Virus record (IMG/VR): IMGVR_UViG_3300043451_000089
Coordinates: 1-36,905 of that record
Reading direction: 5' to 3' (one strand)
DNA length: 36,905 bases
Source: a virus
Lineage: Duplodnaviria > Caudoviricetes
Positions 348-36,905 of this stretch are shown one piece after another; position 1 is the first letter of the stretch, and every line of letters starts with the position of its first letter. A program made the translations under genes and the position numbers. Under the pieces are notes generated by a model, which saw only the letters and a list, made by a program, of their open reading frames with translations, was not told where the DNA came from and did not search any database.

Positions 348-379
348 AAAAAAAAGGAGGCCATTTCTCGACCTCCTTT
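347..379 (-). terminator. Rho-independent terminator after the major-tail operon
   Basis: Minus strand reads AAAGGAGGT-CGAGAAATG-GCCTCCTTT followed by a long T run. Confidence 0.85.
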
Positions 380-3317: not shown

Positions 3318-4081
3318 AGTTGACCTCCATCAATAGTTCCAAAATAGTCCGTGTTTGAGTTGCCACCATCCAAAATGTACTCGTACTCGTTCCCGTTGCA
3401 TGAAGTAGAACAACCCTCCTTGTATTTTACCAAGTTGATTCGTAATTCTACACCGCTAAAATCTGCATTCAAGATGTTTTTGAATGTTCCTTGCGCGTTC
3501 TCGGACCCGAACCTACTGAATGTCTTTCTCTGCACGTTCCGAATCTTTTTAAAGATTGGTTTCGAGTTTACGACCCTCAAAAATTCACTTATAAGTGAAT
3601 TCATAGGCTGAACAACATTCTCTTGGTGGTCCTTTGTAGTGAAATTCATTGGATTTGTTTCATCCAAAAAGAAAATGCGCAATGGCACATCGTATTCAAT
3701 CGAACTTTCTGGACCACTTTCGGTATAAGTAATCGTATCGAGTAACCAAATGAACGGAGTTTTCTCACGAATATCGTTGCTCCGTCTTTGCCATTCCATG
3801 TTTGTGGCGATCTGAGTACCGAGTAATGCAAACGGATTGGGTAAAAATACAGCCCCATCGAGTACATTTTCGTGCCCAACTGGTTCCGCTTTGATGTAAA
3901 CATTGGGTACAACCTCCGTAATCTTGAAAAGATTATCGTTCGTGTCCACGACTAATTTTGAAGGTCTCGCCCATTTGGTATGGCATGAAATAGAACGCCC
4001 TGTCGATTCATCGTAGTTCACGACTATGACATTGCTCATTTCATTGACCAAGCTATTGAACGTAGAAAGAATATCTATCAT
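3314..4081 (-). CDS. Neck/tail-terminator-like virion protein with a C-terminal DGG-repeat extension
   Basis: 255 aa, coupled to both neighbours by 4-nt overlaps. It lies between the connector and the tail tube and ends YILDGGNSNTDYFGTIDGGQL. Confidence 0.55.
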   Translation of the reverse strand: MIDILSTFNSLVNEMSNVIVVNYDESTGRSISCHTKWARPSKLVVDTNDNLFKITEVVPNVYIKAEPVGHENVLDGAVFLPNPFALLGTQIATNMEWQRRSNDIREKTPFIWLLDTITYTESGPESSIEYDVPLRIFFLDETNPMNFTTKDHQENVVQPMNSLISEFLRVVNSKPIFKKIRNVQRKTFSRFGSENAQGTFKNILNADFSGVELRINLVKYKEGCSTSCNGNEYEYILDGGNSNTDYFGTIDGGQL

Positions 4082-8297: not shown

Positions 8298-8328
8298 CAA
8301 ATGTATCTTTTTTTGGTAAAAAAACAAA
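8298..8328 (-). promoter_or_regulatory. Bacteroidota primary-sigma promoter for the portal-capsid operon
   Basis: TTTG(8328-8325)-N19-TACATTTG(8305-8298). Confidence 0.7.
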
Positions 8329-8332
8329 TCGG

Positions 8333-9712
8333 TTAAACTTTGAATATACTTTCCGCGAATATCGAAAGACCTGCCATACAATCGGGTGCATCATCATGTT
8401 TGTTCTTTCCCTCCTTTGTGAATGACTTTAAGTTGGTCATGAATTGCTCGAATTGTGAGTTGTTAGTGTTGACAAATGTCATTTCATTGATGATATGTGC
8501 TGACCTCATGATTATTCGTGTCATCTTATTCGTCTGATTGGCTACTGGTAGTATCCGTGTTTTCGTCATAGTCTGGAGATGTCGCCCGAACATAGCGCCC
8601 ATTGAGTTAGATTCCACCCTGCAATAGTTCACATTCCATCGAGTGAGCATAGATGCCACCATTGGGATTGAAACATCCGTATTGTCCCGCGTAAAAATGT
8701 AGTCAACTATGTAGATTTTCTTTCCAATTAACACTCCAACAACACTCGCTGTGTAGTCTGCACCCTCGTCTGAAACGTCACAATAGCCAATCGAACCAAT
8801 ATATCCGTTCGAGTTTGTATCCGTTTTTTGGCTTTTGACAATGTTGTCAAATTCTGACTTGTCAATTATGGTCAAATCCCCGAATAAACGACCTTTAATG
8901 TCAACTGGCTCCTGCATGTACTCAGCCAACCAAATGTCCTTGGGAGTACGTTTCTTTTTCTCCACGTATTCATCCGTGGTCATGACCGATTCACAAAATG
9001 AGTTGCCGTTCTCGTCCATAGCAGGAATAACAATCGATTCATCATAAATTCCCTCAGCCATATTTCTACCGATCATGTCATTGATGGACCACCTTGTCCC
9101 AATGTCGATACGTGCGCACCCCGTTTCAAATCGAGAATCGTGCGTGGCTTCTTTCCACTGAATTACTTTGTCATTGTAGGTATCGGACATGGCATCTTCA
9201 ATACCTCGGTACAAGTCATCCGTAATCGCTACGTTCTCAGCCCCGAAACCGATAATTGTACCTCCTACTCCAGCACCAAAGTAACCAACTTGTCTTGAGC
9301 TCTTAGTATTCCATCCGTCAATGTTGGATTTGTCATCCGCTAATTGCACATGGGGGAATATCTCTCTGAACTTATCTCCAGTCACAATATTTCGCACGTC
9401 ATAACTGAACTTTCGGTACAAGGTGGCCGTACATGTGTTTCTCATTACTGATTTATCGGGGTTTCGACCTAATGTCCACGCGCAATACAGCGATGTGATA
9501 TAAGACTTTCCTGCACGTGGTGGAAGAGATACTGACAATGAACGTATTTTGCGCTCCTCCACCCTCTGAAATGCATCTGCAATTGGTTTTAAAAATGGTC
9601 GTTTGTTAAACAATTCATGATCCATTGCCAAACAGAACTCCCAAAAATCACGTCTTGCTAATTCATTTTTGAGAGCATTTTTGATGTATTCGAGCTTCTC
9701 ATTTTTTTTCAT
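8333..9712 (-). CDS. terL: Terminase large subunit
   Basis: Walker A PPRAGKS, Walker B ITDD, GTRW, AEYMQEP, nuclease DVSDEGADYTA and HDDAPD. Confidence 0.96.
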   Translation of the reverse strand: MKKNEKLEYIKNALKNELARRDFWEFCLAMDHELFNKRPFLKPIADAFQRVEERKIRSLSVSLPPRAGKSYITSLYCAWTLGRNPDKSVMRNTCTATLYRKFSYDVRNIVTGDKFREIFPHVQLADDKSNIDGWNTKSSRQVGYFGAGVGGTIIGFGAENVAITDDLYRGIEDAMSDTYNDKVIQWKEATHDSRFETGCARIDIGTRWSINDMIGRNMAEGIYDESIVIPAMDENGNSFCESVMTTDEYVEKKKRTPKDIWLAEYMQEPVDIKGRLFGDLTIIDKSEFDNIVKSQKTDTNSNGYIGSIGYCDVSDEGADYTASVVGVLIGKKIYIVDYIFTRDNTDVSIPMVASMLTRWNVNYCRVESNSMGAMFGRHLQTMTKTRILPVANQTNKMTRIIMRSAHIINEMTFVNTNNSQFEQFMTNLKSFTKEGKNKHDDAPDCMAGLSIFAESIFKV

Positions 9713-10052
9713 TTGACAACAATTCCTTGATTTCTTTTGTGCTTAAATCACTCAAATCAATATTTGTCTGCTCTTGTTGTATTTGCTGAACTGGAGCACC
9801 ATAACAACTATCCATTAACGCTTTGTACGCATTAACATCTCCTTCCCTTGCTTTTTTAACCAACGCCAATGTCATCAAATCTTCCTGCGACATCTTCTCA
9901 TTTGTGCCAGTAATTGGATTCTTGGCCGATTGTTCTACCTCCATCCAATAACGTGCGATTGTTGCCCTGCTTTTGGCCCCTTTTGGCCTTCCTTTTGGGT
10001 TTCCACTTTCGCCTTTTTTCCAACGTGGTTCTATTTTTCCTCTTCCTGCCAT
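9699..10052 (-). CDS. terS: Terminase small subunit (DUF5681-like N-terminus)
   Basis: WKKGESGNPKGRPKG motif and KAREGDVNAYK; overlaps the terL start. Confidence 0.85.
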   Translation of the reverse strand: MAGRGKIEPRWKKGESGNPKGRPKGAKSRATIARYWMEVEQSAKNPITGTNEKMSQEDLMTLALVKKAREGDVNAYKALMDSCYGAPVQQIQQEQTNIDLSDLSTKEIKELLSNEKK

Positions 10053-10088: not shown

Positions 10089-10091
10089 AAA

Positions 10092-10154
10092 AGTCAATCA
10101 ACGGATTGCATTTTTTTCTATATTCAATTAGGGGGGCCATTTCCCCCCTTTTTT
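10092..10154 (+). ncRNA. Putative ~60-nt plus-strand small RNA
   Basis: Bracketed by the promoter at 10059-10088 and the terminator at 10130-10154. No ORF lies inside. It begins (A)GTCAATCAACGG. Confidence 0.45.
10130..10154 (+). terminator. Rho-independent terminator with plus-strand polarity
   Basis: AGGGGGG-CCATTT-CCCCCCT followed by TTTTT. The T run exists only on the plus strand. Confidence 0.75.
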
Positions 10155-11331
10155 ATTTTACAACTTCGCCATTTCTTTTTATTACCAATGATGAATCTAG
10201 TTTTTTCATTCTGTCAATAATAACTTGACAATACTTTGGGTCAAATTCAACAATGTAAGCTTTTCTGTTTAATTGATGACATGCAACCATTGTTGTTCCA
10301 CTTCCACCAAAAGCATCAGCAACAATATCACCATCTTTACTTGAGTTTGTAATTTGATAAGCAAATAACTCAACTGGTTTCATTGTTGGATGTTCAGCAT
10401 TTCTATTTGGCCTATTGAATTCTAAAATTGTTGTTTGCTTTCGATCAGAGTACCATGAATGAGAAGCACCTTCTTTCCATCCATACAAACATGGTTCATG
10501 TTTCCACTGATAATCTTGCCTTCCCATAACCATTGAATTTTTCACCCAAATCAAACACTGCTTAACCATAATCCCTGCATTTTTCATTGCTAATCGAAAA
10601 TTAGCTCCTTCTGAATCAGCATGCCAAACATACCATGCGCCACCTTTTTTTGTAAATGCCGCGAGAGCTGTATAAAAATCATAAAGAAATTGGTAAAAAT
10701 CATCATTTGACATTGAATCATTTTTGATAGTCAAAGCATCTTTTGTTTTACCTTCATAAGCGACATTATATGGTGGGTCTGTTACAACTAAATCCGCGAG
10801 TTGACCATTCATTAATTTTTCAAATGTGTCTGTCTGAGTGCTATCTCCACAAATTAAACGATGTTCGCCTATTTCAAATAAATCACCTAATACAATATCA
10901 GTTGTGATTTCATCTGGCATTTCAAAATCATCATCTTCTGCATCTACTTCATTTCCCATTTTTAAATCTGCTGGCAAATCAAGTCCCCAGTTTTCGACCT
11001 CTTCTTGATCCCATTGATTTGCTATCATTTCCCAATCCCATTCACCAAATCCAACGTTGTCTTTAATAATAAATTGGCGTTCTTGTTCTGCAGTCAAAGA
11101 ATCTGCGATGATTACGGGAACTGTTTTCAGTCCAGCTTCTTTGCACGCTTTCAATCGCATATTTCCGCCCAAAACAATCATGTCTTTGTTAACTACAATA
11201 GGCCGAATGTCAAGCATGTCTGGAAATTCTTTTATTGATGCAACCAGTTTGTGGAATTTGTCATCCTTTATTACTCTTGGATTGTTTGGGTTTGACTTTA
11301 ATTCAGTCAGTTTTATTTTTTGCGTATTCAT
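10153..11331 (-). CDS. ParB-N domain fused to a beta-class N6-adenine/N4-cytosine DNA methyltransferase
   Basis: NPNNPR and LGGNMRLKA (ParB-N); TDPPYN, HPTMKP and DAFGGSGTT (MTase motif IV before motif I). Confidence 0.92.
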   Translation of the reverse strand: MNTQKIKLTELKSNPNNPRVIKDDKFHKLVASIKEFPDMLDIRPIVVNKDMIVLGGNMRLKACKEAGLKTVPVIIADSLTAEQERQFIIKDNVGFGEWDWEMIANQWDQEEVENWGLDLPADLKMGNEVDAEDDDFEMPDEITTDIVLGDLFEIGEHRLICGDSTQTDTFEKLMNGQLADLVVTDPPYNVAYEGKTKDALTIKNDSMSNDDFYQFLYDFYTALAAFTKKGGAWYVWHADSEGANFRLAMKNAGIMVKQCLIWVKNSMVMGRQDYQWKHEPCLYGWKEGASHSWYSDRKQTTILEFNRPNRNAEHPTMKPVELFAYQITNSSKDGDIVADAFGGSGTTMVACHQLNRKAYIVEFDPKYCQVIIDRMKKLDSSLVIKRNGEVVK

Positions 11332-11769: not shown

Positions 11770-12066
11770 TCAAATCACAAAATTTGATACCAGCCAGACG
11801 ACCAAATACACCAATCCAATCAATCCATAGCCAATTCCAACGCGAATAACAGACTGTGCCATCATTTTGGTTTTGTCATACCATAACTGAAAAGATGGTG
11901 CGTTTATTCCGAGTAACGGAAGGAGCAAAACGCGGTCAAGAATGAACAGAATTAAGATCAATGGAAAGATGAAAAACAAGGAAATGATAGTTTTCAATGT
12001 CCGTTGTGTGCTCTGCTTGGTTTTACTCTTTCGGGTACTCGATTTTTTAAATTGATGGTGTTTCAT
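11770..12066 (-). CDS. Small membrane protein (about 2 TM segments)
   Basis: Basic N-terminus, then hydrophobic IISLFFIFPLILILFILDRVLLLPLLG and VGIGYGLIGLVYLVVWLV. I moved the start to the ATG at 12066 to avoid a 100-nt overlap. Confidence 0.65.
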   Translation of the reverse strand: MKHHQFKKSSTRKSKTKQSTQRTLKTIISLFFIFPLILILFILDRVLLLPLLGINAPSFQLWYDKTKMMAQSVIRVGIGYGLIGLVYLVVWLVSNFVI

Positions 12067-12322: not shown

Positions 12323-12542
12323 CTTGACTTACTTTATGTTTATGAATTGGGTTGTTGCAATTTCCTTTGTGGGTTATTACATCATAAAGATTATGAGTTC
12401 TGAATTGAATGTACTCGCATTGGTCAATAACTACAATTTTAGGATTATGCAAATTTGTATTTTTGAATAGACCATCATTAGAATCTTGAACGCACCCCAT
12501 CATCCCAATGGCAATTGCGATTATCATTAGTTTACTTTTCAT
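12309..12542 (-). CDS. Small lipoprotein
   Basis: MKSK, a hydrophobic stretch and a lipobox-like MMG-C; CEYI and HKGNCNNPIH motifs. Confidence 0.75.
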   Translation of the reverse strand: MKSKLMIIAIAIGMMGCVQDSNDGLFKNTNLHNPKIVVIDQCEYIQFRTHNLYDVITHKGNCNNPIHKHKVSQDEKN

Positions 12543-12726
12543 CTTGACCTCCGTATGTTTCGTTAATTATATTTTCGGCATCTAATACAAGGTCATCCAT
12601 TCGTATTGTTTGCAAATCGTCTTCAAGCCATTGTATTATAGTTTCAATGTCGGGTCGCTGCATTACTATTCTATTGTAATACCCTTGTACAATTTCCTTC
12701 TGCGCTTGTATTATTTCTGCTTTCAT
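12532..12726 (-). CDS. Hypothetical protein
   Basis: 64 aa; leader AAAAAGTCAAAAA-ATG. Confidence 0.7.
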   Translation of the reverse strand: MKAEIIQAQKEIVQGYYNRIVMQRPDIETIIQWLEDDLQTIRMDDLVLDAENIINETYGGQDEK

Positions 12727-12747
12727 TTTTTGACTTTTTAAATGTTT

Positions 12748-13771: not shown

Positions 13772-13977
13772 GGTTTGACTGTTTTTTTGTTTTCAAAATA
13801 CTTAGCAATCTTGATTACCGCTTTTGTGGTCAATCCCTTTTCCTCATGATTCAAAAAAACAAATACTTGTGAGTAATGGAGACCAACTTCTTTGCAAAAT
13901 CGGTTCAAGTTGACACCAGTCGCGAGATGGTCTTTAATCATCTTTCGGACGTCCTTTTCAATGTTTACTAATTTCAT
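13768..13977 (-). CDS. Small Cro/XRE-like helix-turn-helix protein
   Basis: 69 aa from the ATG at 13977, just after the upstream stop. VNLNRFCKEVGLHYSQVFVFLN...GLTTKAVIKIAKYF fits an HTH. Confidence 0.75.
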   Translation of the reverse strand: MKLVNIEKDVRKMIKDHLATGVNLNRFCKEVGLHYSQVFVFLNHEEKGLTTKAVIKIAKYFENKKTVKP

Positions 13978-15608: not shown

Positions 15609-15625
15609 AATTGACTTTTCTTTTG

Positions 15626-15656
15626 CAAATATAACAAATTAAACTTATTACACAAA
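15626..15656 (-). promoter_or_regulatory. Promoter of the recombination operon with a palindromic operator (15632-15650)
   Basis: TTTG-N19-TATATTTG; operator TAATAAGTT-T-AATTTGTTA. Confidence 0.85.
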
Positions 15657-17605: not shown

Positions 17606-17968
17606 TCAAAATAAATCTAATTGGATATAAGTTTTTGCGGGTACGGCTACTGGTCTCAATTCCATTTCCAAAATCTCAACCAATCTTTGATAAATTTCAC
17701 CTCGTCCGCTTATTACTTGAATCATCCATGAAACGCCTGATTCATAACATGCGCGTTTGCTATCAAATTGATTTGAGTTTGGTTCGTGCAATGAACAAGC
17801 ATATTCAAATCCTTGACTTTGCCCTCTAAAACCCATTCCATATACCCATTTGCCATTTGGTAATTGAGCTAATTTTATGACTGCTGTATATTTTTTGGAG
17901 CACTTGAATGTGTGATGTGTTGGATTTGTACAAGTTCCGTGCTCATTGAAATGATATTCCTGTTTCAT
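17606..17968 (-). CDS. Hypothetical protein
   Basis: 120 aa coupled to dnaB. It ends in QLDLF, which resembles a clamp-binding motif. Confidence 0.75.
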   Translation of the reverse strand: MKQEYHFNEHGTCTNPTHHTFKCSKKYTAVIKLAQLPNGKWVYGMGFRGQSQGFEYACSLHEPNSNQFDSKRACYESGVSWMIQVISGRGEIYQRLVEILEMELRPVAVPAKTYIQLDLF

Positions 17969-19998: not shown

Positions 19999-20087
19999 CT
20001 GCATTAAAATGAAAAGTCCCTACGAATGGTCGTGATGCAGCACTTCCACCCATAAGGACTCCAATATTTTTCGTTTTGACCCTGCAT
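19999..20087 (-). ncRNA. C4/CI-like structured antisense leader of the replication operon
   Basis: A 15-bp stem AGTCCTTATGGGTGG/CCATTCGTAGGGACT (20060-20015) presents CTGCAT in a sub-loop. Complementary ATGCAG sites lie at 20087-20082 and 20004-19999. Confidence 0.75.
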
Positions 20088-21511: not shown

Positions 21512-22081
21512 TTATACTTTAAAAATTCCTCTTTGGTACAACTCAAACACGATTTCTGCCTCGTGCATGGCATCATCAGCACCTCTATGAGCTTCTTCAT
21601 ACCCGGTATCTCCAAAGAAAAACTGATATGCCTCTGGTACCTTGGGCCATTTGTAGCCAAAACCTCTTGGAGATGGCATCTTAACTATGTCAGTCGAAAG
21701 AATCATTGGACATGCCAACTTTTTGGGAAATTTAAATCCTCGATTTTCTAAGAATCCAAAATCAAAAACGTTGTTGAATGCCGTAGCTCCGTCTGGGTAC
21801 ATATTGATCACGTTTTGGACGTCATCAAACATGTTTTTTAAGTTGGTCGAAAACCTGATATCACTACTTTTCAAGGTACTGTTACTGACTATCCAAGACG
21901 TTACAATTTCCTCGTTTGTGATTCCGTCCTCATGGCAAACACGGTCAAAAACAATCTCCCTTTCACCATTGCTTAGGTCCAATTCAACCATTCCGATTTC
22001 GACAATTTTACCTCCTGTTTGGAGAAACCCAGTTGTCTCGATGTCGATTATCAAAATTTTGGGTGGGGTTTGACTTTTCAT
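21512..22081 (-). CDS. DEDDh 3'-5' exonuclease (DnaQ-like)
   Basis: IDIETTG, AFNNVFDFGFL and AHRGADDA. Confidence 0.92.
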   Translation of the reverse strand: MKSQTPPKILIIDIETTGFLQTGGKIVEIGMVELDLSNGEREIVFDRVCHEDGITNEEIVTSWIVSNSTLKSSDIRFSTNLKNMFDDVQNVINMYPDGATAFNNVFDFGFLENRGFKFPKKLACPMILSTDIVKMPSPRGFGYKWPKVPEAYQFFFGDTGYEEAHRGADDAMHEAEIVFELYQRGIFKV

Positions 22082-22537: not shown

Positions 22538-22981
22538 TCAGTTTTCATGATCTAATACTACCATTTGAATTATTGTTCCTGTTACCTTGCATGCTCCAGT
22601 CCAATCGGTCACGCAACAATCTCCGTCAACGTCAACCAATACATAGTCTGAATACTCGTCACGCTCAGAAACACGGCTGATAAATTTAACCTCTGCACCA
22701 TGCATCTTTAATCGTAGATATGTCTTTTTTTCAAACCTTGAAATGTTGAAATCAATCTCCTTTACTTTTGTTGGAGAAGTTGGAGAAATGATGTTTGCAA
22801 CCCCGTTCAAATTCTCGAATGATACTTCTGTACCTTCCGCAATTGGCAACCATACATCTTTAAAATGTTCTTGGCCATCTACCATGTCCACAAACTCTTT
22901 TGTTAGTACCATCAATAAACCATTGCTACGTCTTGCGATGATTCCTTTACTAGGATAACTCTTTTTCTTGATCTGATTCAT
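22538..22981 (-). CDS. Hypothetical protein
   Basis: 147 aa with a long A-rich leader. Confidence 0.75.
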   Translation of the reverse strand: MNQIKKKSYPSKGIIARRSNGLLMVLTKEFVDMVDGQEHFKDVWLPIAEGTEVSFENLNGVANIISPTSPTKVKEIDFNISRFEKKTYLRLKMHGAEVKFISRVSERDEYSDYVLVDVDGDCCVTDWTGACKVTGTIIQMVVLDHEN

Positions 22982-23075
22982 TTTCTTTATTGTTTAATTG
23001 TTTGACTTTTGCTTCTAAAACGCGGGAGTAATGCTCATAATTGAAATGACCTCCATTCTCCCAAAATTTAATCAT
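22950..23075 (-). CDS. 41-aa hypothetical protein
   Basis: MIKFWENGGHFNYEHYSRVLEAKVKQLNNKENESDQEKELS* (manual translation). Confidence 0.5.
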   Translation of the reverse strand: MIKFWENGGHFNYEHYSRVLEAKVKQLNNKENESDQEKELS

Positions 23076-23236: not shown

Positions 23237-23254
23237 AGATTGACTTATTTTTGA

Positions 23255-23284
23255 CAAATATATAATAAATTAAACTTATTACAA
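23255..23284 (-). promoter_or_regulatory. Early promoter with a palindromic operator filling the spacer (23263-23281)
   Basis: TTG-[TAATAAGTT-T-AATTTATTA]-TATATTTG. Confidence 0.88.
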
Positions 23285-26452: not shown

Positions 26453-26613
26453 TTTGTAATTGCAATAGGTGCTGATGCAATTGGATAATATTTTGAGATC
26501 ATCCAGCAATTACCGCCTACCATTAAACATAATGCAACTTCATTACGAACAACGTGAGTTGATACTGTTCCTTTTTTTGCTACTGATAGCTTTTGATCTC
26601 TTGACATTTTCAT
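26443..26613 (-). CDS. 56-aa first early protein
   Basis: MKMSRDQKLSVAKKGTVSTHVVRNEVALCLMVGGNCWMISKYYPIASAPIAITKWL*; directly after promoter 26639-26671. Confidence 0.6.
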   Translation of the reverse strand: MKMSRDQKLSVAKKGTVSTHVVRNEVALCLMVGGNCWMISKYYPIASAPIAITKWL

Positions 26614-26638
26614 TTTGACTTTGTTTTTAATTGTTGAG

Positions 26639-26671
26639 CAAATATATAATAAGTTAATCTAATTACACAAA
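26639..26671 (-). promoter_or_regulatory. First early promoter with a palindromic operator (26647-26665)
   Basis: TTTGTG-[TAATTAGAT-T-AACTTATTA]-TATATTTG. Confidence 0.85.
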
Positions 26672-26733
26672 TAAAAATGAATCTTTTTTCAAATTATTTT
26701 TTAATGTGCTAAAAATCAAAGGTATATATAACC

Positions 26734-26758
26734 AAAAAACCCACTCGGTTGAGTGGGT
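26734..26758 (-). terminator. Rho-independent terminator ending the late operon and the sRNA
   Basis: ACCCACTC-AACC-GAGTGGGT-TTTTT. Confidence 0.92.
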
Positions 26759-26794
26759 CTCTCGGAAAAAGTCAAACCTATCAATAAAGATCGG
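26734..26794 (-). ncRNA. Putative trans-acting sRNA with anti-leader seed UAGGUUUGACUUUUU
   Basis: It has its own promoter (26799-26828) and terminator (26734-26758). The seed at 26780-26766 is complementary to AAGTCAA motifs at many start codons. Confidence 0.7.
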
Positions 26795-26798
26795 AGTT

Positions 26799-26828
26799 CA
26801 AATGTACTAAAATTCGCTCAATAAACAA
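26799..26828 (-). promoter_or_regulatory. Promoter of the putative sRNA
   Basis: TTG(26828-26826)-N19-TACATTTG(26806-26799), overlapping the end of the lysin gene. Confidence 0.75.
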
Positions 26829-27379
26829 TAGGTAACTGATTTTTGGCCCTTTGTTTTGTTGATGATCTGCTTGTACATCTCCAAATTGTTGGCTACTTGA
26901 CAGCCCAATGACCATCCTCCAATCAATGTTTTCACGCGCATGTCATTCATGTCGTATGTGTTCGGGTGGAAATTGATTCCGCACATCTCCAATGTTGCCG
27001 TGTTTTCGTCCACGGAATTGTCTTTATCTGCATCTCGGCATATTAGGAATGGCCTAACTTGTTTTAATGCCTCTACCTTGCCTTTATGCCATCCAAATTG
27101 CCACACATCATAGTACCACTCATTCGATTTTACATGGGCCGTTCCTTTCGCTCCGTACTTGTCGAACTCTTTTAACCCGTTTGCGCCTGCGTTGGTTGTT
27201 CCAGTGCAAACCAAAACGAACTTATCCCCATTCCACAAATAGAACTTGTCATCAAACGTATTGAATTGGTCCTCTTTGGAACGAATCCCAAGTAACCAAT
27301 AATCTTTTGGCAACGTCTTGAAGCTGGGTAATGATTTGACCCTATTCAATAACTCTTGATCAGTATAATTTTTGACCAT
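26807..27379 (-). CDS. Putative endolysin with a YkuD/L,D-transpeptidase-like catalytic motif
   Basis: Last gene of the lysis cassette; GINFHP...GGWSLGCQV resembles H-x(n)-S-x-G-C. Confidence 0.7.
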   Translation of the reverse strand: MVKNYTDQELLNRVKSLPSFKTLPKDYWLLGIRSKEDQFNTFDDKFYLWNGDKFVLVCTGTTNAGANGLKEFDKYGAKGTAHVKSNEWYYDVWQFGWHKGKVEALKQVRPFLICRDADKDNSVDENTATLEMCGINFHPNTYDMNDMRVKTLIGGWSLGCQVANNLEMYKQIINKTKGQKSVTYCLLSEF

Positions 27380-36672: not shown

Positions 36673-36905
36673 TATTGAATCTTTCAATACATTCGATCGC
36701 CAACTTTTCGCGACTTTCCTCGGCCAACCCAATAATGCCGTCACCATATTTTTGAAATAAATCTTCTGTTCCATCTTCATTGACTTTTATTGCATCTGCA
36801 TCTATGACAAAGGTAGCATCCATCATGACCGTAATGAACATTGACCTATAAAATTCCCCACTATCATACAACGTGTATGGAGTACCTTCCATTTTATCTG
36901 GGTTT
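36641..36905 (-). CDS. 3' part of the junction-spanning 157-aa tail-region protein (starts at 336)
   Basis: In frame with 1..336 through the 127-bp overlap. Confidence 0.85.
   Translation of the reverse strand, partial: NPDKMEGTPYTLYDSGEFYRSMFITVMMDATFVIDADAIKVNEDGTEDLFQKYGDGIIGLAEESREKLAIECIERFNNVAREILQWS
36779..36905. repeat. Terminal direct repeat, copy 2
   Basis: Identical to 1-127. Confidence 0.95.

Follow-up and report, generated by a model that had tools for sequence, protein, structure and literature searches.

A putative anti-start RNA behind the last late gene of a presumed Bacteroidota phage, and its possible pairing with a tag at early and middle gene starts

Cluster K mycobacteriophages carry a start-associated sequence (SAS) of 13 bp in 11-19 copies, positioned 3-7 bp before the starts of non-structural genes; four genomes hold a single opposite-strand copy of SAS/ESAS, and the passages of the report on these repeats leave open whether their reader is an RNA or a protein (Pope et al., 2011; PMC3203893). 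In T4, the protein RegA represses about 30 mRNAs while RegB cuts GGAG in early start regions (PMC3014915). Short RNAs that act by base pairing are represented by the c4 antisense RNA of phages P1 and P7 (immI), which acts in trans on the phage's own messages (PMC8546580), by GibS of Bacteroides thetaiotaomicron, a trans-acting small RNA (sRNA) whose unstructured seed pairs across the start codons of its targets (PMC7366714), and by sRNAs derived from 3' untranslated regions (UTRs), such as CisR, which share the terminator of their parent mRNA (PMC13250501). Here, we analyze a non-coding unit at positions 26732-26828 (minus strand) of IMG/VR record IMGVR_UViG_3300043451_000089, an uncultured Caudoviricetes virus whose whole sequence of 36,905 nt is referred to below as the window. 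The unit follows the last gene of the late block, which encodes 190 aa; the term 'lysin' is kept here only as a handle for this gene and for the homologue searches made with it.

On balance, we favor the view that the RNA of this unit is an anti-start RNA that pairs with tagged starts of early and middle genes and probably blocks their translation jointly. Such an RNA, made from its own promoter or as the 3' end of the late mRNA, would pair with (A)AAGUCAA(A) located 0-4 nt before nine gene starts; pairing would likely deny the ribosome access to these starts, and the translation of early and middle genes would be lowered together. With the tag adjoining the start codon, a block of initiation would be its simplest mode of action. 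Its purpose might be the shut-down of early genes once late transcription runs, or immunity. The anatomy of the unit, its pattern of conservation and a lineage-specific mirror relation between unit and tag favor an interaction at the level of RNA; pairing in the cell and repression as its effect are our inferences. Transcription from a promoter of its own is predicted; release of the RNA from the 3' end of the late message is just as conceivable.

Promoters recognized by the Bacteroidota sigma factor ABfr possess TAnnTTTG at -7 and TTTG near -33, according to PMC7366714. A match to this type, TTG-N19-TACATTTG, adjoins the stop codon of the 190-aa gene: the reading frame ends TTT TAG (stop at 26809-26807), and the -7 box starts at the very next base (Table 1). 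We treat it as a sequence match with predicted activity. TAnnTTTG boxes are present on the coding strand at 27 unique places, and only six of them have a TTG 17-22 nt upstream; all six are intergenic. Apart from the unit box at 26806, these full matches lie at 26780 (overlapping it, and weaker), at 26646 (P1), 23262 (P2) and 15633 (P3), and at 8305, where the promoter precedes the portal gene and has the same TACATTTG box as the unit. A block of about 40 nt, GTAATAAGTTTAATTT...TATATTTG, is common to P1-P3 (26630-26672, 23247-23288 and 15629-15657), spans the spacer between -33 and -7, and is likely a common operator; neither the unit promoter nor that at 8305 contains it. The difference in box and block hints at a different regulatory class for the unit.

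The terminator begins about 33 nt behind the box. Folded as RNA, its hairpin reaches -24 kcal/mol in the centroid (z = -5.2); that it ends the late operon is certain, independent of any further role of the unit. Between box and hairpin lies an open stretch, UUUGACUUUUU, which is antisense to (A)AAGTCAA(A). A reading of the unit as the gene of a small peptide was rejected: in the window it contains neither an ATG nor an open reading frame (ORF), and a 40-codon frame present in the related locus L206 is not conserved. A comparison with the covariance models of Rfam 15 gave no match at gathering score anywhere in the window, the best sub-threshold candidate being PsrR1 with 22 bits against a cut-off of 42 bits; this agrees with an earlier, sequence-only reading of this DNA, whose author knew of no described RNA family that fits the unit.

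The tag is tied to gene starts. GTCAA occurs within -15..-1 of 9 of the 51 called starts, where 0.61 would be expected from the upstream composition, and AGTCAA within the same interval of six starts (0.27 expected). The coding strand contains 86 copies of GTCAA, nine of which end 0-4 nt before an annotated ATG (0.62 expected), and seven of the nine tagged starts belong to early or middle genes. Matches of at least 9 nt to the seed core number ten in the whole genome; seven of them fall within -30..+15 of a start. The first genes after P1, P2 and P3 are each tagged, and their leaders are otherwise dissimilar. The sequence-only reading had described the promoter at the lysin stop, the strong terminator that closes the unit, ten motif sites, their accumulation near starts and the tagging of the first gene behind each of the three promoters, and our data bear out each of these points: the promoter is one of the six full matches and keeps its position in four lineages, and all ten sites were found where they had been placed, as matches of 7-12 nt, except that the site before ATG 12542 consists of the GTCAA core only. 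It had not seen the motif at head or tail gene starts, and this needs correction for three genes: the core adjoins or precedes the starts of the large terminase gene, of a tail-fibre-like gene and of gene 36780.

Table 1. Positions of the unit, of its candidate target sites and of further features in the window.
Feature	Position	Strand	Context
-33 TTG of the unit promoter match	26826..26828	-	within Tyr-Cys codons TAT TGT; 19-nt spacer
-7 box TACATTTG	26799..26806	-	directly after TAG; consensus box at the same position in L206, L212 and L235/236/238
Predicted RNA, ~64 nt	26732..26795	-	5' end inferred from the box position
Seed GGUUUGACUUUUU	26766..26778	-	unpaired in the centroid fold; TTTGACTTTT kept in L206
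Predicted intrinsic terminator	26732..26765	-	15 pairs, 7 of them G-C; loop of 4; U-run; also ends the late operon
Tag AAAGTCAAA, 9-nt antisense match	26614..26622	-	adjoins ATG 26613, first gene after P1
Tag AAGTCAA, 7-nt match	23240..23246	-	3 nt before ATG 23236, first gene after P2
Tag AAAAGTCAAAC, 11 nt	23000..23010	-	leader of the gene starting at 22981
Tag AAAAGTCAAACC, 12 nt	22067..22078	-	codons 2-5 of the exonuclease gene (ATG 22081; RNase_T domain)
Tag AAAAGTCAA, 9-nt match	15611..15619	-	2 nt before Erf ATG 15608, first gene after P3
Tag AGTCAAACC, 9-nt match	13772..13780	-	adjoins ATG 13771 (RusA-like gene)
Tag AAAAAGTCAAA, 11 nt	12729..12739	-	2 nt before ATG 12726
GTCAA core only, within GGAGGTCAAG	12544..12548	-	before ATG 12542
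Tag AAGTCAA, 7-nt match	12324..12330	-	1 nt before ATG 12322
Tag AAAGTCAAACC, 11 nt	11289..11299	-	33-43 nt inside the ParB-methyltransferase gene (ATG 11331)
GTCAA core	9713..9717	-	adjoins large-terminase ATG 9712 (late gene)
GTCAA core within GGAGGTCAACT	3320..3324	-	before tail-fibre-like ATG 3317
Second same-sense copy of the seed core, TTGATTGACTTTTC	10090..10104	-	gap before the small-terminase-like gene
P1 -7 box TATATTTG	26639..26646	-	TTG at N21
P2 -7 box TATATTTG	23255..23262	-	full promoter match
P3 -7 box TATATTTG	15626..15633	-	full promoter match
Last gene of the late block, 190 aa ('lysin' in the sequence-only reading)	26807..27379	-	ORF; final codons supply the -33 TTG

With regard to contiguous pairing, the unit matches 6 of 52 start regions over at least 9 nt, a level reached by none of 500 shuffled versions and by 9 of 6124 real 36-nt windows of this genome. 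The only other places at the level of the unit are 20020-20038, in an intergenic gap, and 11980-11998, inside a gene (both minus strand); these are complementary to a common start context, ATGAAAAA(G), are probably due to chance, and show the background of the test. The second copy of the seed core (10090-10104) is also among the top antisense-to-start windows. It lies in the 100-nt gap after the stop of the ParB-methyltransferase gene, behind a GGGGGG/CCCCCC hairpin; no TTGAC is present in the gap before the terminase genes among the relatives of this region (large terminase: 14 loci, 51-67% identity).

A strong terminator within about 35 nt of a promoter, on the same strand as all downstream genes, is also what one would expect of an attenuated leader, in which the promoter fires into the terminator and yields a short abortive RNA unless antitermination sets in, as in the PR'-tR'/Q mechanism of phage lambda. 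We assign this explanation the lowest probability of those considered, a very small one: the downstream genes have a full promoter of their own, P1, 150 nt further on, no antiterminator-like gene was recognized among the window proteins, and the antisense match to the tags and its lineage specificity would be left unexplained. Lambda 6S RNA is itself listed as a phage sRNA without a known role in the sRNA overview of PMC12197685.

The IMG/VR relatives of the lysin gene amount to 73 loci with at most 62% identity, and a metagenome collection added L203-205, which are near-identical to the window (98-100%), and L206, with 69% lysin identity. In L203-205 the unit is identical. Six contigs from other DNA sequencing runs align here, five of them across the unit; the flanks of these five diverge by 2.6-4%, while none of the differences listed for the five falls within 26732-26828, and two contigs (X3 and X5) show no difference across 26722-26857. 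In L203-205 an unrelated first early gene replaces the window gene at 26613, and the junction lies exactly at the tag (AAAAAAGTC-ATG), which suggests that the tag may also serve as a recombination joint. Scans for the 14-mer seed in 13 of 64 parts of IMG/VR gave about 120 unrelated chance matches (best context identity 48/100), exact-sequence scans with the P2/P3 promoter block and the terminator gave no match, and neither the methyltransferase-like gene (5 loci, 46-64%) nor the large terminase led to closer kin.

L206 is distant enough to show which parts of the unit are held constant. It keeps TTG-N19-TACATTTG, the seed part TTTGACTTTT / TTTGAC(T)TTTTCC and the whole hairpin, while about two thirds of the 22-24 positions between promoter and seed differ. 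Sliding identity between the two sequences is highest over seed and terminator (0.87-0.97) against a baseline near 0.65; gene end and promoter reach 0.80-0.83, and the first early start region 0.90. The seed is unpaired in the centroid folds of both. The tag is likewise kept in L206, at 5 of 18 starts (0.64 expected), and the small change within the seed is mirrored at gene starts: L206 has the seed CAUUUGUUUGAC, and three of its start regions read GTCAAACAAA(TG) and match this seed over 10-13 nt, while in the window three GTCAAACC sites match its own GGUUUGAC. When the seeds were swapped, the starts of L206 preferred the L206 seed (matches of at least 10 nt: 3 vs 1). In the homologous leader of gene 22981, the tag stands 19 nt upstream in the window and adjoins the ATG in L206 (6070-6095), a case of site turnover.

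The placement of the promoter extends further than the tag. The consensus -7 box follows directly after the stop codon, be it TAG, TAA or TGA, and the TTG is always at N19 in the window, L206, L212 and L235/236/238, whose lysins are 48-69% identical; the box is followed by 40-75 nt and then by a terminator. An independent promoter is thus likely in some lineages. A box TAGGT(T/A) just 5' of the terminator recurs in the units of the window, L212, L235/236/238, L007 and L013/15. The tag of the window is not shared to this extent: within 15 nt before the starts of the 73 relative loci, GTCAA occurs at 0-2 genes per locus and AGTCAA at none. Other lineages have private tags: in L015, ATCAA marks 10 of 29 starts; in L069, 9 of 33 starts carry ATAAC, the core of ACATAAC; and in a large 'group B', 7 of 10 tested loci (L035 and L040 being among the ten) have TAAAC(AC) at 6-8 of 35-44 starts. 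Lineage-specific start-associated sequences therefore look general in this group of phages. Pairing of the tag with 16S rRNA was considered and dropped because the tags differ between lineages.

In L016 and L018 the tag is a different one, AAAACTAAAAA, which takes the form TTAACC-N3-AAAACTA(A/G)AAA and stands 3-5 nt before the ATG of early genes; in L016, AAACTA ends 0-12 nt before a start in five of its nine copies (0.28 expected). The post-lysin unit of these loci, AGUUUUUAGUUUUAAA (more fully CAAAAGUUUUUAGUUUUAAA plus the hairpin), is antisense to this tag, with perfect matches of 15, 12, 11 and 9 nt, a level that about 0.5% of 200 shuffles attain. The unit of L238 matches two starts over 10 nt, the ATG included. 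The units of L212 (five starts) and L235 gave no significant start matches, and the complementarity of GTGTTT to AAACAC in group B amounts to only 6-8 nt and is not significant. In L069, at 17770-17860 (plus strand), a TATATTTG box is followed by a long hairpin with a U-run, whose 5' arm, GTTATGTTTTAAAA, is antisense to the L069 start tag over 14 nt and whose 3' arm mimics the tag; another antisense match, of 11 nt, lies in the last codons of the lysin gene (8516-8545). Sequences similar to AACCTAAA are found in some leaders of L007, L015 and L016, so that the recurrent TAGGT(T/A) box may be another pairing element, and one that more lineages share.

In all cases the element directly precedes the early region, and the first gene after P1 is among its matches in the window (26622-26614, 9 nt), in L206 (2138; 10 and 9 nt) and in L238 (10759, 10 nt). 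A cis-only insulator, by which read-through transcripts would fold back on the first early start some 150 nt downstream, would account for these observations in the absence of any trans-acting regulon. We consider it improbable, since the best matches lie far off (12 nt at 22078, and 11 nt at each of 12739, 23010 and 11299), the L016 unit fits genes at a distance of 3-5 kb better than it fits the first one, and a terminator of -24 kcal/mol leaves little read-through.

To compare unit and tag across lineages, we used six independent representatives (the window, L016, L238, L015, L007 and L035), leaving out L212, which has too few starts, and L235/L236, which belong to the same lineage as L238. 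As unit we took what lies between the -7-type box and the terminator stem, and as targets positions -25..+10 of all called starts; genes were called by a simple longest-ATG rule. Antisense 9-mer matches between a unit and the starts of its own lineage averaged 3.84, compared to 0.61 for cross-lineage pairs. At 9 and 10 nt, only the identity among the 720 permutations reached the diagonal, and at 8 nt 4 of 720 did. The controls behaved differently, with 132 of 720 permutations for complement-only, 266 of 720 for sense and 190 of 720 for reverse matches, and with a value of 0.65 for intragenic windows. In an 8 x 8 table that included L206 and L018, own exceeded cross in all four within-lineage comparisons. 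In an unbiased scan of all 30-nt windows, the post-lysin region ranked first or close to first in the window, L206, L016, L018 and L238. Not counted was the top rank of L004, where AAACTA is not start-associated; an intergenic hot spot in L043 proved to be an A/T-palindromic promoter region and not an antisense unit, and the L018 record has a further antisense copy, which is intragenic.

The same data bear on the idea that the motif is a DNA operator, bound as double-stranded DNA in either orientation by a phage protein at the early and post-lysin promoters. At P1-P3 the tag stands 9-17 nt downstream of the -7 box and the backward copy in the unit 22 nt downstream of its box, and P1-P3 share the further operator-like block of about 40 nt described above. 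The tag is locked to starts, at 0-4 nt, even at junctions that have no promoter boxes (12322, 12542, 12726 and 13771), each small early gene of L016/L018 has its own copy 3-5 nt before the ATG, and, as the sense control shows, the units never carry the tag in sense orientation. The antisense orientation in every positive lineage, together with a start-locked tag at promoterless junctions, argues against an operator, and we regard this explanation as very unlikely.

Several observations weigh against an anti-start RNA and have to be set against the comparative evidence. Energies calculated with RNAduplex did not single out the unit: the 36-nt unit reached -10 kcal/mol or below at 23 of 52 starts, against 19 on average for shuffles (p about 0.24), with random windows doing equally well; for the 19-nt seed, the corresponding figures are 8 of 52 starts (15%) versus 12.7% for random windows, with a shuffle p of about 0.12. 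The duplexes between unit and starts are rich in A/U and weak (-9 to -13.6 kcal/mol), and since the tag is multi-copy, a single antisense copy automatically yields many 'targets'. The swap test was one-sided, in that the starts of the window do not prefer its own seed over that of L206 (at least 10 nt: 2 vs 4). Contigs from RNA libraries were found only at 26815-27023 and 27027-27271, inside the lysin gene (eight runs compared), and contigs cannot show RNA ends. The claim of the sequence-only reading that one trans-acting RNA controls translation of the early program draws partial support from the comparison of lineages and none from duplex energies or from the second half of the swap; the early-to-late switch and the immunity that it proposed would be possible purposes.

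The comparison of lineages has limits of its own. Lineages and units were chosen after the loci had been seen, and the evidence comes down to few independent events, about two robust lineages and some marginal ones. The unit of L035 (group B) has no significant start match, and that of L007 gave marginal values, none of them significant. L015 is marginal (p 0.01 at 8 nt or more; p 0.035 at 9 nt or more), and its matches run via ATG-AAAAGAA and not via its tag; despite a strong ATCAA tag, its unit contains no complement of it. In the 30-nt scan the post-lysin region was not near the top in L015, L007, L012 and group B (including L035, L040 and L043). The covariation of unit and tag in relatives, which the sequence-only reading had named as a check, is seen in the six-lineage test and in L016/L018, is seen in L206 on one side of the swap, and fails in L035, in L007 and for the ATCAA tag of L015. 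Its description of the RNA as 'dedicated' fits the promoter match of the window; L013/15, L016-L023 (including L016/L018) and the large group B have TAnnTTTA instead, often with no TTG, and in lineages that lack a good promoter the element could arise only as the late-message 3' end.

These points raise the question of whether the unit is a plain terminator with a 3' UTR, the ribosome or a protein of phage or host being the reader of the tag and the backward copy a by-product, for example of a recombination-prone multi-copy cassette inserted in inverse orientation. Some terminator has to stand here in any case, because every gene points the same way and the late block continues past the terminal repeat as far as 26807; the succession of lysin, terminator and early promoter is the general layout in the relatives. 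The non-significant duplex energies, the tags in lineages without a matching unit (L015, group B) and the exchange of the first early gene of L203-205 exactly at the tag, which fits a recombination linker, can all be accommodated; the reader of SAS, too, was left open as 'either RNA or protein' in the passages cited above (PMC3203893). Such a by-product would not explain why a consensus -7 box is fixed right after three different stop codons in four lineages, why TTTGACTTTT is kept beside the hairpin while the adjoining 22-24 nt have diverged, why a second lineage has a different tag with a matching backward copy in the same place, or why specificity for the own lineage is absent from the sense and complement controls. 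We consider this explanation unlikely, at perhaps one chance in a handful, and keep to the anti-start RNA as the reading we favor.

The window is a complete phage genome. It has a direct terminal repeat of 127 bp (1-127 / 36779-36905), which leaves 36,778 unique bases; the repeat lies inside the block of structural genes and therefore probably marks a circular assembly, not physical ends. All credible genes are on the minus strand, and no tRNA genes were found in the window. Read in the direction of transcription, the gene order starts with tail and structural genes (36780 to 27979), followed by two small holin-like genes, of which the one just upstream of the 190-aa gene is holin-like by a weak match, and by the 190-aa gene itself (27379-26807). 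The next block encodes a helicase, ParB-like, PAPS reductase-like, exonuclease, DnaB-like and NinG/Rap proteins, methyltransferases, Erf, SSB and a RusA-like protein; small and large terminase, portal, protease and major head protein follow, and the order leads through the terminal repeat into the tail genes. The label 'lysin' is unverified, as the 190-aa protein belongs to phrog_3000, which has no assigned function, and has no Pfam or PDB match. No RNA-binding protein was recognized among 30 small or function-unassigned proteins of the window.

The host would be a member of the Bacteroidota, to judge solely by the promoter type and by how scarce Shine-Dalgarno sequences are. A full Shine-Dalgarno-like GGAGG core is present at three starts (12549-12553, 3325-3329 and about 369-375, minus strand), in two cases fused to the tag as GGAGGTCAA, and the genome is otherwise devoid of such sequences. 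A search of prokaryote genomes with the lysin gave a single weak match (36% over 39 residues) and hence neither a prophage relative nor a host, and megablast against GenBank phages gave no match. The sequencing data comprised 22 DNA and 2 RNA-library runs, and the DNA runs that hold the phage are freshwater metagenomes.

More generally, phages of Bacteroidota might each possess a private tag and a co-evolving anti-start RNA at the end of the late operon, for a lineage-specific early shut-off and possibly for RNA-based superinfection immunity; we put this forward tentatively, as a possibility that falls short of being probable. If the reading of the unit is correct, a single RNA of roughly 60 nt would control about ten phage genes via a shared tag at their start codons. 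This would be an RNA answer to the problem of early shut-off that T4 solves with the proteins RegA and RegB, set in a phylum whose initiation lacks Shine-Dalgarno pairing and in which little is known of post-transcriptional control. A testable function would also result for 'start-associated sequences', including the SAS of mycobacteriophages, unexplained since 2011, and a simple, reprogrammable pair of tag and RNA for the control of gene sets in Bacteroidota.

The c4 RNA is processed from the operon that it controls and acts on this one operon, and another short RNA of this base-pairing kind is the CI RNA of satellite P4; the phage unit would, in contrast, address about ten dispersed start regions through their shared tag. 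It would resemble the sar and OOP antisense RNAs, as these are summarized in PMC12197685, with a dispersed regulon in place of their targets. In the literature within reach, which excludes supplements and subscription journals, we found no such system described for phages of Bacteroidota.

Measured against the published passages on SAS, the tag shares much with that repeat: it is a short asymmetric sequence a few nucleotides before starts, present in many copies and in essentially one orientation, concentrated at non-structural genes (here, 7 of 9 tagged starts are early or middle) and attached to unrelated gene families, and it is kept where the first early gene was swapped in L203-205. SAS differs in being 13 bp long, rich in G+C and equipped with a Shine-Dalgarno core, whereas the phage tag has 5-11 nt, is A-rich and has no such core, in a type of host largely without Shine-Dalgarno sequences. 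The backward copy of the phage is enclosed by a promoter match and a terminator, and it differs between lineages in step with the tag, a feature that the SAS passages do not describe. No homology was found between (A)AAGTCAA(A) and the SAS consensus GGGATAGGAGCCC, which makes the tag an analogue and not a member.

The unit shares with GibS the presumed Bacteroidota context, a sigma-ABfr promoter of the type TAnnTTTG, the lack of Shine-Dalgarno sequences and, by prediction, an unstructured seed that pairs across starts; GibS differs in being encoded on the host chromosome and in its long extended seed, its metabolic targets and the absence of a repeated target tag. Like the 3'-UTR-derived sRNAs, the unit lies behind the coding part of the last late gene, in its 3' UTR, and shares the terminator with it; unlike them, it is preceded by a consensus promoter in the window and three further lineages, which makes independent transcription likely as well. 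With RegA and RegB, as portrayed in the T4 account, it would have in common that one phage factor acts on a short sequence in many early initiation regions and that early synthesis is shut down; those factors are proteins, and the recognizer of the phage unit would be an RNA that acts by base pairing. Seen in this way, the unit would belong with the antisense controls already known in phages and, on the more general and tentative view given above, might be a programmable counterpart of T4 RegA.

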